A DNA stretch of 64,000 nt from Escherichia phage vB_Eco-B1.1: sequence record ON871820. One strand, given 5' to 3'. Numbering within the stretch: the stretch's first letter is position 1; each line of letters begins with the position of its first letter. The position numbers and the translations under genes were made by a program. Positions 9,498-57,812 of the stretch are shown here, piece by piece. The notes below the pieces were generated by a model. It made no database searches. It saw nothing but the letters and a program-made list of their open reading frames with translations, and was not told the origin of the DNA.

Positions 9498-9527
9498 GTT
9501 TACATCTCTGTTCTTCCGTGGTACTAT
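9498..9527 (+). promoter_or_regulatory. early promoter GTTTAC-N18-TACTAT (part of repeat cassette)
   Basis: consensus; followed by conserved leader TTGGAGAATGAAATG. Confidence 0.55.
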
Positions 9528-9561
9528 ACAACTATCAACTGATGCGGATTTGGAGAATGAA

Positions 9562-9942
9562 ATGAAAATCGCTATTTTGGTTATTGCATTAGGTCTTACT
9601 GGTTGTGTAGCTCAAGGACCGGTAGTAAATCAGTCTGATGTAGGAAAAATTGTAAACTGTTCAAGCAAGTTTTATAATCCTAATGTCAAGTGTTATAAAG
9701 AAGCTCCAAAGCAAACAGTAGAACAAATGCAGGCAAATTTTGACGAAGCTATTCGTCCAGATGAATCTGCTCAAGCATATCGTAATTCGGATGTAATTAC
9801 ACGCGAAGAAAAAATTGAAAACTACTGCGCCGAGCTTTGGGCTAATTGGGCTAATAATTACCAATGGCGTACTGGTAAAAATGCTCCGATGGAGTATGTA
9901 GTGAATTCTTATAATTCATGTGTAAAAAATTTGACTAAGTGA
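9562..9942 (+). CDS. predicted lipoprotein (imm.1 position)
   Basis: MKIAILVIALGLTGC lipobox; start placed at ATG after early promoter and GGAG, not at the ORF-track start inside the promoter. Confidence 0.5.
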   Translation: MKIAILVIALGLTGCVAQGPVVNQSDVGKIVNCSSKFYNPNVKCYKEAPKQTVEQMQANFDEAIRPDESAQAYRNSDVITREEKIENYCAELWANWANNYQWRTGKNAPMEYVVNSYNSCVKNLTK

Positions 9943-9949
9943 GGAAAAC

Positions 9950-10201
9950 ATGGAAACTTTAGTAGCAGGTTCAATTTTTATGGTTTTAGTTTCAGGTGTG
10001 TTGGCTATTATTATATACATGCTTCCATGGTTCATTGCCTTGATGCGTGGGTCAAAATCGACAGTAGGAATCTTTTTCACGTCTTTACTGTTTAACTGGT
10101 CAATTATTGGTTGGTTTATTACATTTATTTGGTCAATTGCGGGTGAAACCAAAAAGTCTGCACAGCCAAATCAAGTAATTATCATCAGAGAGAAGGAATG
10201 A
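9950..10201 (+). CDS. imm: Imm superinfection immunity membrane protein
   Basis: 83 aa, two hydrophobic segments, located between 43 and 42. Confidence 0.7.
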   Translation: METLVAGSIFMVLVSGVLAIIIYMLPWFIALMRGSKSTVGIFFTSLLFNWSIIGWFITFIWSIAGETKKSAQPNQVIIIREKE

Positions 10202-10347
10202 AAAGCAAAATTATAGCAGTGTTGCTTTTAATCTTGATGATTATAATAAGTATATACTATAGTGTAACGGTTCCTCTTATGATTCCAACTATTATTTTAG
10301 GTTGGAGTTTATTACTGTTACAAGTTAAATATGAATGTATCAATTGA
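10198..10347 (+). CDS. small hydrophobic protein (49 aa)
   Basis: ATGA overlap with imm stop; MKSKIIAVLLLILMIIISIYY... single TM; below ORF-track size cutoff. Confidence 0.35.
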   Translation: MKSKIIAVLLLILMIIISIYYSVTVPLMIPTIILGWSLLLLQVKYECIN

Positions 10348-10354
10348 GGTTTAA

Positions 10355-11095
10355 ATGATTAGTGACTCTATGACAGTTGAAGAAATCCGTCTTCATTTGG
10401 GGCTTGCATTAAAAGAAAAAGATTTCGTAGTTGATAAAACTGGTGTTAAAACTATTGAAATTATTGGCGCATCATTTGTAGCAGATGAACCGTTTATTTT
10501 TGGCGCTCTTAATGATGAATACATTCAGCGTGAACTTGAATGGTATAAATCTAAGAGTTTGTTTGTTAAAGATATTCCAGGTGAAACACCAAAGATTTGG
10601 CAGCAGGTAGCATCTTCTAAAGGCGAAATTAACTCGAATTATGGTTGGGCTATTTGGTCAGAAGATAACTATGCCCAGTATGATATGTGTTTAGCTGAAC
10701 TTGGTCAAAATCCTGATTCTCGGCGTGGTATCATGATTTATACTCGTCCATCCATGCAATTTGACTACAATAAAGATGGTATGTCAGATTTCATGTGTAC
10801 TAATACAGTACAGTACCTGATTCGTGATAAGAAAGTCAATGCGGTTGTTAGCATGAGAAGCAATGATTGCTGGGCAGGCTATCGTAATGATTATGCTTGG
10901 CAAAAATACGTACTAGATAAATTAGTATCTGATTTGAATGCAGGCGACCCATCGCGGCAATATAAAGCAGGTTCTATTATATGGAACGTTGGAAGTCTTC
11001 ATGTGTACGAAAATCAGTTTTATTTAGTTGACCATTGGTGGAACACCGGTGAGACTCATATTGCTAAAAAGGATTATACTGGAAAATGGAAGTAA
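10355..11095 (+). CDS. 42: gp42 dCMP hydroxymethylase
   Basis: 246 aa; thymidylate-synthase-like fold motifs; synteny. Confidence 0.9.
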   Translation: MISDSMTVEEIRLHLGLALKEKDFVVDKTGVKTIEIIGASFVADEPFIFGALNDEYIQRELEWYKSKSLFVKDIPGETPKIWQQVASSKGEINSNYGWAIWSEDNYAQYDMCLAELGQNPDSRRGIMIYTRPSMQFDYNKDGMSDFMCTNTVQYLIRDKKVNAVVSMRSNDCWAGYRNDYAWQKYVLDKLVSDLNAGDPSRQYKAGSIIWNVGSLHVYENQFYLVDHWWNTGETHIAKKDYTGKWK

Positions 11096-11727
11096 ATGTG
11101 CCGCATGTTTATAAGTATAAACATCCTAAAACTAAAAAGTGGTATATAGGAAGTCATGATGGTCACAACCCGAATTATGATGGTTCGGGTGTAGTTTGGC
11201 AACATGTTAAAAAGAAATATGGAATAAAATCCTTTAATAAAGAAATATTATATGAAGGACCAATGTTTAGACAGGTTGAAGAAATTATTTTAACTTGTTT
11301 AGATGCTGCTAATTGTCCGGATTCATATAATTTAAAGAATGAAGCATGGGGAGGAAGTTTTCCAGGCAAATTAAATGGAATGTACGGTAAAAAACTATCT
11401 CCAGAAGAAAGATATAAGTGCGGAAATGCCTTTCGTGGAATCAAGCGTCCTGATCATTCTAAAAGAATGAAAGGCGAAGGTAATCCAATGTATGGTAAAA
11501 ATGAGCAGGCATATGGAATTATAAATCGAGCCAAGGAAAATTCTGGTAAAACTTATGAAGAAATTTTTGGCGTAGAAAAAGCTAAAATAATTAAAGAAAC
11601 GATGTCTAAAAATCGTAAAGGAAAACCTCATAATTTGATAGAAAAAATATGTCCGCATTGCGGACTAAAAGGACGTGGGCCAAATATGACAAGATACCAT
11701 TTTGATAAATGTAAGGCACTTAAATGA
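11086..11727 (+). CDS. GIY-YIG (Seg-like) homing endonuclease
   Basis: HVYKYKHPKTKKWYIGS fits GIY...YIG; NUMOD-like GNPMYGK / GKPHN repeats; C-terminal CPHCG zinc knuckle. Confidence 0.55.
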   Translation: MEVNVPHVYKYKHPKTKKWYIGSHDGHNPNYDGSGVVWQHVKKKYGIKSFNKEILYEGPMFRQVEEIILTCLDAANCPDSYNLKNEAWGGSFPGKLNGMYGKKLSPEERYKCGNAFRGIKRPDHSKRMKGEGNPMYGKNEQAYGIINRAKENSGKTYEEIFGVEKAKIIKETMSKNRKGKPHNLIEKICPHCGLKGRGPNMTRYHFDKCKALK

Positions 11728-55929: not shown

Positions 55930-57108
55930 ATGTTTAAACGTAAATCTACTGCTGAACTCGCTGCACAAATGGCTAAACTGGCTGGAAATAAAGGTGGTTT
56001 TTCTTCTGAAGATAAAGGCGAGTGGAAACTGAAACTCGATAATGCGGGTAACGGTCAAGCAGTAATTCGTTTTCTTCCGTCTAAAAACGATGAACAAGCA
56101 CCATTCGCAATTCTTGTAAATCACGGTTTCAAGAAAAATGGTAAATGGTATATTGAAACATGTTCATCTACCCACGGTGATTACGATTCTTGCCCAGTAT
56201 GTCAATACATCAGTAAAAATGATCTGTACAACACTGACAATAAAGAGTACAGTCTTGTTAAACGTAAAACTTCTTACTGGGCTAACATTCTTGTTGTAAA
56301 AGACCCAGCTGCTCCAGAAAATGAAGGTAAAGTATTTAAATACCGCTTCGGTAAGAAAATCTGGGATAAAATCAATGCAATGATTGCAGTTGATGTTGAA
56401 ATGGGTGAAACTCCGGTTGATGTAACTTGTCCGTGGGAAGGTGCTAACTTTGTACTGAAAGTTAAACAAGTTTCTGGTTTTAGTAACTACGACGAATCTA
56501 AATTCCTGAATCAATCTGCGATTCCAAACATTGATGATGAATCTTTCCAGAAAGAACTGTTCGAACAAATGGTTGACCTTTCTGAAATGACTTCTAAAGA
56601 TAAATTCAAATCGTTTGAAGAACTGAATACTAAATTCAGTCAAGTTATGGGAACTGCTGCTATGGGTGGTGCCGCAGCAACTGCTGCTAAGAAAGCTGAT
56701 AAAGTTGCTGATGATTTGGATGCATTCAATGTTGATGACTTCAAAACAAAAACTGAAGATGATTTTATGAGCTCAAGCTCTGGCAGTTCATCTAGTGCTG
56801 ATGACACGGACCCCAAAGCATACTGTGGTACTATACAACTATCGGCAATACTGCTGATGATGATTAAAGAGGAAAATAACATGGCTAAAATTGATATTGA
56901 TGTTGTTGATTTTGAATATATTGAAGAAATTATTCGTAATCGTTATCCTGAACTCCGTATTACAAGCGCACTAAATGACCCCAATTGCAATGTTTCAGTT
57001 GTTATTGAAGGTCCTTTAAATCGTCTTAAACAATTTATGATTAATGAATATTGTGACGGTATGGATGCTGAAGATGTAGAATTTTACACAGGATTTATTG
57101 AGCAGTAA
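55930..57108 (+). CDS. 32: gp32 ssDNA-binding protein, with C-terminal in-frame readthrough into downstream ORF
   Basis: residues 1-294 match T4 gp32 including Zn-binding Cys/His; no stop codon until 57108 (392 codons). Confidence 0.85.
56881..57108 (+). CDS. hypothetical acidic protein (75 aa), possibly also translated independently
   Basis: internal ATG preceded by AAAGAGGAAAATAAC SD; in frame with gene 32. Confidence 0.3.
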
Positions 57109-57115
57109 TTATCAA

Positions 57116-57140
57116 GGGGCTATCAAGCCCCTATTAAAAT
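57116..57140 (+). terminator. hairpin downstream of gene 32 region
   Basis: GGGGC-TATCAA-GCCCC followed by TATTAAAAT. Confidence 0.35.
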
Positions 57141-57152
57141 GAGGAAAACGCA

Positions 57153-57515
57153 ATGTATACTGGTAGAAAATATGAACTTGTTCCAAGACTTATTGATACA
57201 TTTATTAATTATCGCCCGCGTTCTAATTCATTAATAGTTAAAATTATTCAAGAAAATGGCGGATGGTTTGAAGTTAAAGAAGCTTTCTTTGCTGATGGAT
57301 TTAGAGTAATAAAACACATTGAATGCGCAAATGGAAAGCATTTTTACTTCAACGTCTGTGAAGACGAATTTCATTGTTTTCGTGAGTATAAAGAACCGAC
57401 TTCTGAAGATGAAGTCGAAGACAAGGTTTCTGGCGTAACAAAAATTCACTGCATTGTTGACGAAAACAATGTAGATGAAATCATTGAACTTTTACGAAAA
57501 ACTTTCAAAAAGTAG
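57153..57515 (+). CDS. hypothetical protein (frd.3 region)
   Basis: 120 aa after GAGGAAAA. Confidence 0.4.
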   Translation: MYTGRKYELVPRLIDTFINYRPRSNSLIVKIIQENGGWFEVKEAFFADGFRVIKHIECANGKHFYFNVCEDEFHCFREYKEPTSEDEVEDKVSGVTKIHCIVDENNVDEIIELLRKTFKK

Positions 57516-57544
57516 TTTACAGTAGGGTAGTAGTGTGATACTAT
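57515..57544 (+). promoter_or_regulatory. early promoter GTTTAC-N18-TACTAT
   Basis: consensus; followed by AGGAGAATAAAATG leader. Confidence 0.5.
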
Positions 57545-57569
57545 TACCCTATCAACTAAGGAGAATAAA

Positions 57570-57812
57570 ATGAGATTACAACGTCAGAGCATTAAAGATT
57601 CAGAAGTTAGGGGTAAATGGTATTTTAATATCATCGGTAAAGATTCTGAACTCGTTGAAAAAGCTGAACGTCTTTTGCGTGATATGGGATGGGAAGATGA
57701 ATGCGATGGATGTCCTCTTTATGAAGATGGAGAAAGCGCAGGATTCTGGATTTACCATTCTGATGTTGATCAGTTTAAAGCTGATTGGAAAACTGTGAAA
57801 AAGTCTGTTTAA
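57570..57812 (+). CDS. hypothetical protein (frd.2 region)
   Basis: 80 aa; CDGCP motif. Confidence 0.4.
   Translation: MRLQRQSIKDSEVRGKWYFNIIGKDSELVEKAERLLRDMGWEDECDGCPLYEDGESAGFWIYHSDVDQFKADWKTVKKSV

Follow-up and report, generated by a model that had tools for sequence, protein, structure and literature searches.

Introduction

The early promoters of phage T4 and their leaders are textbook biology, and the cassettes analysed here belong to them. They lie scattered over a stretch of 64,000 nt from Escherichia phage vB_Eco-B1.1 (record ON871820; the window, hereafter, is this whole stretch), and their class is already known: they are T4 early promoters, published as promoter early stem-loops (PeSLs). 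The layout described for T4 early promoters is UP element, -35, TGn and -10, plus additional regions of consensus (PMC2988021). The PeSL class itself was defined in phages RB49 and phi1, and the T-even elements were called analogues, not homologues (Arbiol 2010, PMC2839356). For the phages PST and T4 a PeSL was described as an AT-rich region, the motif TTTACW-N17-TAYWAT and a Shine-Dalgarno (SD) sequence with ATG at the 3' end, with a stem-loop upstream, and an exchange of open reading frames (ORFs) at ndd.4/ndd.5 was illustrated (Comeau, Arbiol and Krisch 2014, PMC4122927). Early messengers of T4 carry sites for the RegB/S1 nuclease, whose strong cleavage consensus is GG*AGRAYARAA (PMC3014915).

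The units of the window compare closely with these systems. With T4 early promoters they share positions, genes, the layout of UP element, GTTTAC -35, TGn and -10, and the additional conserved positions; the difference is that in the lineage of the window the motA and frd.3 units lack UP and -35 and keep a TG-extended -10 only, and nothing else essential sets them apart. The PeSLs of PST and T4 are alike in motif layout, in their placement before small non-essential ORFs and in the involvement of the ndd.4/ndd.5 region in exchanges. They differ in that the events seen in the window are mostly small (42, 71, 106 and ~200 nt, at SD-ATG repeats or blunt ends), not whole swaps between two flanking PeSLs. 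Those of RB49 and phi1 are alike in principle, being composite promoter and terminator repeats that act as recombination linkers, but they have near-perfect TTGACA/TATAAT motifs and GGGG...CCCC stems. The T4 RegB/S1 sites also have GGAG in the SD and an A-rich 3' side, and three of the window units match the cleavage consensus exactly.

We are confident in reading these units as sigma-70-dependent immediate-early promoters of T-even phages with their 5' leaders, in the T-even PeSL form, which recombine with one another and which include two deleted copies, at motA and at frd.3, the latter with a fusion to gene 32. What this adds to the known class is modest: cassette-mediated events resolved to the base, and a circulating allele that fuses gp32 to Frd.3 and is paired with a truncation of the motA promoter.

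Results

A family of early promoters with related leaders

The window is from a T4-like phage of the genus Tequatrovirus, with hundreds of T4-like phages of Escherichia, Shigella and Yersinia at 95-98% identity (megablast of two sub-regions). It aligns collinearly with the T4 reverse strand, starting at ~34,975 and running through the origin of the record to ~139,324, at 95-97% identity in most blocks. Generic sigma-70 scanning does not discriminate in so AT-rich a genome (57 sites against 64.5 expected). A census with the pattern TTTAC-N16-18-TAnnAT, to which two copies lacking a -35 were added, yielded 15 credible early promoters, every one of them on the + strand. The -10 is the non-consensus TACTAT in nine of them; the six others have TATAAT, TATGAT or TATTAT, and leaders unrelated to those of the TACTAT class.

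The similarity within this class extends into the leader. Over the 20 nt after the -10, the nine units have a mean ungapped identity of 56% (maximum 95%), compared with 32% among the six other early promoters and 27 +/- 10% for random 20-mers. The copies are thus more alike than independent early promoters of the same genome, as a reading made earlier from the sequence alone had proposed. The core TACTAT-N4-CTATCAACTA has six matches in the window at two mismatches or fewer, with 0.03 expected, and an unsupervised repeat search recovered the family independently (repeat families D1, D2, D3, D5 and D8). Every one of the nine has its counterpart in T4 before the same gene: imm.1, sp, motB.2, the cef side, the ndd.6 side, ndd.4, motA, frd.3 and frd.1. 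The nine TACTAT-class units are thereby predicted to be T4-type early (sigma-70) promoters with leaders.

The sequence-only reading had listed seven such units and a weaker eighth, and all eight are present at the positions it gave and end at ATG; it overlooked a ninth member, at sp (16064-16162). It had also described the copies as nearly identical. This holds for two of them, since the 47-mer it quoted is matched at up to three mismatches only at 9518 (two mismatches) and 36647 (none), against zero matches expected, and the others are looser relatives. The GTTTAC-N18 said to precede several units is found at 9518, 27178, 36647, 37160 and 57535, but not at 28883, which has TATATAC, nor at 40246 and 56813, which have no -35.

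Architecture of the cassettes

Intact units have a constant order: an A/T-rich upstream region, TTTACW, a 17-nt spacer ending in TG(G/A), TACTAT, a leader, a GGAG-type SD and ATG. This agrees with the published architecture of the T-even PeSLs (AT-rich region, TTTACW-N17-TAYWAT, SD and 3' ATG), so that the likeness noted in the sequence-only reading stands. The upstream A/T tracts, such as AAAAATTTTTTCACAAAAC, correspond to the UP element, which motA and frd.3 have lost by deletion. The full set of -35 TTTACW, 17-nt spacer, TG extension and -10 TAnnAT is found in six of the nine units; the sp unit (16126) keeps -35, spacer and -10 with AGA in place of the TG extension, and the motA (40262) and frd.3 (56829) units have lost the -35 by deletion while keeping TG and -10. 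SD and downstream ATG close all nine. Leaders are 25-46 nt long and poor in G; their consensus is ACAACTATCAACTACTGATAC, and that of the ndd.4/frd.1 subfamily is TACCCTATCAACTA.

Folded as RNA, the leaders show next to no structure (minimum free energies of 0 to -4.7 kcal/mol, z >= -0.4), apart from a small hairpin at frd.3. We considered that they might contain a structured RNA element and rejected this, given these weak folding energies and z scores and an Rfam search of the whole window, which gave no match.

Hairpins do occur upstream of some units. One clearly adjoins the motA unit (40230-40247), and weaker or more distant ones lie at 9454, 36590 and 57449; in T4 and RB14 a hairpin and T-tract stand immediately upstream of both the motA and the frd.3 units. 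They are not the UUCG hairpins that had been reported before some units: the loop is CUCG at 40230-40247 and UCCG at 9393-9410. A UUCG hairpin adjoins an early promoter just once (20052-20073), and that promoter is not a family member. Hairpins of the form GGGCTTCGGCCC, with UUCG loops and AATAA before them (4651-4676, 35732-35757 and 35960-35985; repeat D13), are terminator-like and not part of the cassettes.

Predicted RegB/S1 sites lie at the 3' end of several units. Perfect GGAGRAYARAA sites occur only three times in the 64 kb (28925, 36681 and 57560; 0.30 expected), always as the SD of a cassette, and GGAG with a partial match to the consensus is found at 9551, 37185 and 40297. RegB/S1 function can account for the conservation of the last 11-15 nt of the unit, not for the similarity of the -10 or of the leader.

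Exchange of segments between copies

Comparison of orthologous loci between phages shows that they carry alternative spacers and leaders, each identical to a paralogous unit. The frd.3 spacer is AAGCATAAAGCTTTATGG in T4 and IME339, and AACCAAAGCATACTGTGG, which is the motA spacer, in RB14, EP01, KIT06 and at least 25 listed records. In genomes of the RB14/EP01 type the motA and frd.3 units, separated by 16.5 kb, are direct repeats of ~72 nt that match almost perfectly. The imm.1 leader is of the ndd.6 type (…GATACGGATTTGGAG) in T4 and in the window and of the cef type (…GATACAGAAAACAACTTGGAG) in RB14. The imm.1 spacer of T4 is identical to the ndd.4 spacer of T4, yet its leader is of the ndd.6 type. 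Such mosaics are as expected from a recombining repeat family, and through this comparison of alleles the nine units are shown to behave as homologous repeats that exchange segments, not merely as convergent promoters.

A further candidate for gene conversion, the joint loss of ACT from the imm.1 and ndd.6 leaders of the window, was set aside as proof. Slippage at ACTACT can recur, which makes the loss suggestive only. A scan for it in IMG/VR returned only five stretches, with one contig carrying one short and one long form, and the imm.1 unit of RB14 has a different leader altogether.

A deletion at the gene 32-frd.3 junction

One of the copies lies within the reading frame of gene 32, at its end, as the sequence-only reading had observed, and its origin can be resolved to the base. 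In T4, IME339, RB14 and EP01, gene 32 ends in ...ADDTDLDDLLNDL and a stop. Next come a terminator hairpin and a T-tract, and then the frd.3 promoter with its UP element and -35. Relative to EP01, the window has a single clean deletion of 106 nt, which joins ...ACGGACC to CCAAAGC... and removes the segment running from TGGATG to GGTTTACAA. The endpoints show no microhomology, and both flanks are 100% identical to EP01 in the compared stretch. Gene 32 thereby loses its last eight codons, its stop and its terminator, and frd.3 its UP element and -35. The resulting frame crosses the promoter remnant and the leader into frd.3, giving a gp32-Frd.3 ORF of 392 aa made of gp32 residues 1-293, 24 residues from the promoter remnant and leader including the start Met of frd.3, and the rest of Frd.3 (75 aa of Frd.3 in all).

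This allele is not confined to the window. The 1179-bp coding sequence (CDS) of the fusion is annotated, without comment, in phiC600P9 and GEP001 from China and in CrRp10 from France; the paper on CrRp10 does not mention it. A mismatch-tolerant probe for the junction found no carriers beyond these three except TB004 (Malaysia), where one extra A gives a gp32 of 311 aa with a novel tail of 18 aa and leaves frd.3 separate. CrRp10 has the junction on a T4-like frd.3 background and the other carriers on an IME339-like one, with the frame open in both. The presence of the junction on two frd.3 haplotypes indicates that the allele has recombined into different backgrounds. No representative of the fusion length occurs among the protein clusters, and the exact 392-aa sequence is absent from a collection of 15 billion proteins.

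In several genomes, gene callers extend homologues of frd.3 (P0003 and P0004) upstream through the promoter. In many phages this frame thus has no stop in the -10 and leader, so that the 106-nt deletion could yield a fusion. A programmed frameshift at GACCCCAAAG that would restore the normal end of gp32 was considered and rejected by inspection: the zero frame is unlike an X XXY YYZ heptamer and the other frames give unrelated short tails.

The fusion allele is plausibly viable. The segment of gp32 that binds Dda (residues 248-270, PMC11551737) is kept in the fusion, and the 264-301 tail has been described as prone to divergence between T4 and RB69 (PMC535899). Carried by several isolates and haplotypes, the allele offers a natural test of how much of the acidic C-terminus of gp32 the T4 replisome needs. 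The PeSL model argues that targeting avoids damage to core genes (PMC2839356), whereas one event in the window does damage a core gene, and a cassette can thus take part in such a deletion.

A matching truncation at motA

The motA unit of the window has lost the same segment. The motA.1 hairpin abuts the spacer (GGCTCTCC/AAAGC), and the T-tract, UP element and -35 are gone through a deletion of 42 nt with CC microhomology. The right endpoint can be placed at the very position of the frd.3 deletion (TTTACAA/CCAAAGC), just after the -35 hexamer. A generic scanner called no terminator at this truncated unit. The junction is also present in GEP001, phiC600P9, CrRp10, SP21535, ZN18 and Sfk20, and in TB004 with the same extra A as at gene 32; ZCEC15 and IME537 have slightly different motA junctions. 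All carriers of the gene 32 deletion carry the motA deletion too. This paired loss may reflect common descent of a linked segment, co-selection or a shared mechanism, and the extra A at both loci of TB004 could be real co-variation or a systematic sequencing error.

With a TG-extended -10 only, the truncated motA and frd.3 units should be weaker promoters. With the terminators gone, transcription of the gene 52 operon should run on into motA, and gene 32 transcripts into frd.3-frd.1. The two truncations provide a natural test of the dependence of T4 early promoters on UP and -35.

Tentatively, and with more doubt than conviction, the two loci can be read together. A circulating Tequatrovirus lineage would make its only single-stranded DNA-binding protein as a 392-aa gp32-Frd.3 fusion (in TB004, as a gp32 with a frameshifted tail of 18 aa), without the canonical LDDLLNDL tip of the C-terminus and the gene 32 terminator, and the same lineage would have lost the same promoter segment, with the same right endpoint, at motA. 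If so, a directed or co-selected process would have acted on the two most similar cassettes, for example by shortening the ~72-nt direct repeat that brackets 16.5 kb with essential genes, or by rewiring the early expression of motA and the frd cluster.

The motA.1 hairpin also varies in its tetraloop (40237-40240), which is CUCG in the window, TB004 and phiC600P9, and CGAG in T4, Sfk20 and ZCEC15. The two loops are reverse complements, as if the motA.1 loop had been inverted. In ZCEC15 (151-351 of the retrieved stretch) a truncated promoter of the motA type is followed by a different leader and an ORF (MKFKIENE...) in place of motA, which looks like a cassette-bounded gene replacement.

Indels at and away from cassettes

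The units had been proposed to flank insertions of ORFs foreign to T4, which is overstated. All nine lie at positions orthologous to T4 and five are in conserved blocks free of indels. An ORF absent from T4 follows the unit at 36647 only, and the event there is a deletion in T4, not an insertion in the window. Indels of 10 nt or more relative to T4 number 17, four of which touch a TACTAT-class unit; relative to RB14, three of 19 events do so, and in neither comparison are the six other early promoters touched. The suggested association with indel boundaries is modest: it is well above random placement, which predicts 0.5 events at units relative to T4 (P ~0.0006), but is not significant against other intergenic segments, as discussed below.

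Events at the edges of cassettes are small and resolve to short repeats inside the units. On the ndd.6 side, RB14 has promoter-ORF68-ORF87, with an ORF of 68 aa in front; the window has promoter-ORF87; and T4 has the promoter with a remnant of eight codons. Each step is bounded by GAGAATRAAATG, GAGTAAAATG or AAATGAAA repeats, which are look-alikes of SD-ATG. At frd.1, two CTAA(T)GGAGAA..AAAATG (SD) repeats enclose 71 nt in T4 that the window lacks. These are natural examples of the stepwise gain and loss of small ORFs at SD-ATG ends, beside those of spacers and leaders moving between distant copies. The 71 nt of T4 (146018-146090) are an unannotated mini-ORF of 22 hydrophobic codons (MFAPYIMAAVMLVCLYLLIKAC) with its own SD, absent opposite 57556-57565 of the window.

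The remaining events are swaps of whole ORFs with no cassette at their edges, involving putative homing endonucleases of seg/mob type, a glucosyltransferase and a tail-fibre adhesin.

Discussion

From these elements and the T4 literature, one may picture the working of a cassette as follows. Host RNA polymerase would bind the cassette at its AT-rich UP region, TTTACW -35, TG extension and TACTAT -10. Transcription would start a few bases downstream, giving an unstructured, G-poor leader that ends in the GGAG SD and ATG; this GGAG and its A-rich 3' side would also be targeted by RegB/S1, the phage nuclease behind the shut-off of early mRNAs. The comparisons between phages further show the SD-ATG ends behaving as short direct repeats where small ORFs come and go, in the ndd.6-side series from RB14 through the window to T4 as well as at the frd.1 mini-ORF. 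Finally, two deletions with a common right endpoint, of 42 nt at motA and 106 nt at frd.3, have stripped T-tract, UP and -35 from the most similar units.

Several observations weigh against this picture. An upstream stem-loop was looked for at 27182, 28886 and 56829 and not found, so that this part of the PeSL definition applies to the family only in part. Constraints from RegB/S1 and the ribosome can by themselves explain the conservation from SD to ATG. Promoter activity is predicted from sequence elements, above all at the two units without -35. Indels touch four of the nine units and five of the 26 other intergenic segments of at least 40 nt, a difference that is not significant (P ~0.15) in this single comparison with T4, and the other five units show plain conservation with T4.

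These observations could fit independent early promoters that resemble each other through selection for an optimal promoter, leader and RegB site, with neither shared descent nor exchange. Strong functional constraints on T4 early promoters and RegB sites are indeed documented (PMC2988021, PMC3014915), and both the five units without rearrangement and the lack of a significant indel excess over intergenic DNA agree with it. Nevertheless, six other predicted functional early promoters in the window do without TACTAT or the leader motif. Moreover, in specific pairs (imm.1/ndd.4 in T4, motA/frd.3 in RB14) the two units have one and the same spacer between -35 and -10, a stretch without known contact positions, and orthologous loci bear alternative segments, each identical to a different paralogue. 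We find selection alone a very unlikely explanation. Even less credible is an autonomous mobile element, such as a miniature inverted-repeat transposable element or a homing element, inserting its own copies. The copies are dispersed and some lie at the edges of indels, but all of them occupy conserved orthologous positions in T4 and RB14, no terminal inverted repeats, target duplications or associated transposase were seen, and the rearrangements that could be resolved are all deletions or gains and losses of ORFs, at short direct repeats or blunt junctions.

The gene 32 junction calls for its own alternatives. It might be an artefact of assembly or sequencing, through collapse of the 31-nt repeat CCAAAGCATACTGTGGTACTATACAACTATC that it shares with the motA locus: this repeat is indeed present twice in the window (D5), and the one-base difference of TB004 at both junctions could be systematic error. 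But a collapse would join the left flank of motA to frd.3, and the actual left flank is gene 32; the junction also recurs in four other isolates (two from China, one from France and, with one more base, TB004 from Malaysia) on two downstream haplotypes, and we regard an artefact as extremely improbable. Alternatively, the 13-nt motA-type spacer at the junction might be a recent copy from motA in that genome, made once the motA unit had already been truncated, as the 31 identical nt at both loci, the nested distribution of carriers and the common right endpoint could suggest. Such a patch transfer from motA to frd.3 is disfavoured, and we consider it unlikely: full-length frd.3 promoters with the motA-type spacer are common, in the phages and records named above, and the window differs from EP01 by one clean deletion, with none of the left-side sequence of a donor.

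Coordinates and other features

The cassettes and associated ORFs are listed in Table 1. The motB.2 cassette is probably the counterpart of P8.1, a characterised T4 early promoter named in PMC2988021, an equivalence drawn from position. On the cef side, the ATG opens an ORF of 11 codons only (MENLPKVLLLF, 28935-28970), despite the perfect RegB-consensus SD. At ndd.4, the start codon is out of frame with the body of the gene (37198-37310; ATGAAAAG in the window, ATGAAAAAG in T4), leaving an ORF of 10 codons after which ndd.4-like sequence resumes in a different frame, the cause being a genuine frameshift or else an error in a homopolymer.

Table 1. Positions in the window of the TACTAT-class cassettes, of ORFs linked to them and of the other early promoters used for comparison.
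Feature	Position	Strand	Elements	T4 orthologue
imm.1 cassette	9460-9564	+	-35 TTTACA 9499-9504, TGG, -10 TACTAT 9522-9527, leader, GGAG SD, ATG 9562	27056
sp (spackle) cassette	16064-16162	+	-35 TTTACT, -10 TACTAT 16126-16131, GAGGAG SD, ATG 16160; repeat D3	20085
motB.2 cassette, most divergent member	27120-27217	+	-10 TACTAT 27182-27187, GAGGAU SD, ATG 27215	8194
cef-side cassette	28824-28937	+	degenerate -35 TATACA, -10 TACTAT 28886-28891, RegB-consensus SD GGAGAATAAAA 28925-28935, ATG 28935	6606
ndd.6-side cassette	36589-36693	+	-35 36628-36633, -10 36651-36656, RegB-consensus SD 36681-36691, ATG 36691	167062
87-aa ORF (phrog_2390)	36691-36954	+	driven by the ndd.6-side cassette	8-codon remnant only
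ndd.4 cassette	37102-37200	+	-35 37141-37146, -10 37164-37169, leader CCCTATCAACTA, GGAGG SD, ATG 37198	166783
Truncated motA cassette	40230-40311	+	hairpin 40230-40247, TG-extended -10 40262-40267, GGAG SD, motA ATG 40309	
Truncated frd.3 cassette, inside gene 32 frame	56813-56883	+	junction 56812/56813, motA-type spacer CCAAAGCATACTG, TG-extended -10 56829-56834, leader, GAGG SD, frd.3 ATG 56881; no UP element, -35 or terminator	
gp32-Frd.3 fused ORF, 392 aa	55930-57108	+		
frd.1 cassette	57477-57572	+	-35 57516-57521, -10 57539-57544, RegB-consensus SD 57560-57570, ATG 57570	
Six non-family early promoters (comparison set, census)	20049-20145, 22151-22247, 28225-28339, 32309-32404, 42665-42766, 53572-53671	+		

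Away from the cassettes, T4 features without counterpart in the window are segG, mobA with the gene 60/39 split, and the td and nrdB introns; Rfam found no group I intron in the window. ORFs of the window that are absent or replaced in T4 lie at 3088-3975, 11086-11727, 18643-19197, 29824-30195, 57823-58068 and 58649-58855, and by their N-terminal sequence some of the non-T4 ORFs look like putative homing endonucleases of the seg or mob type.

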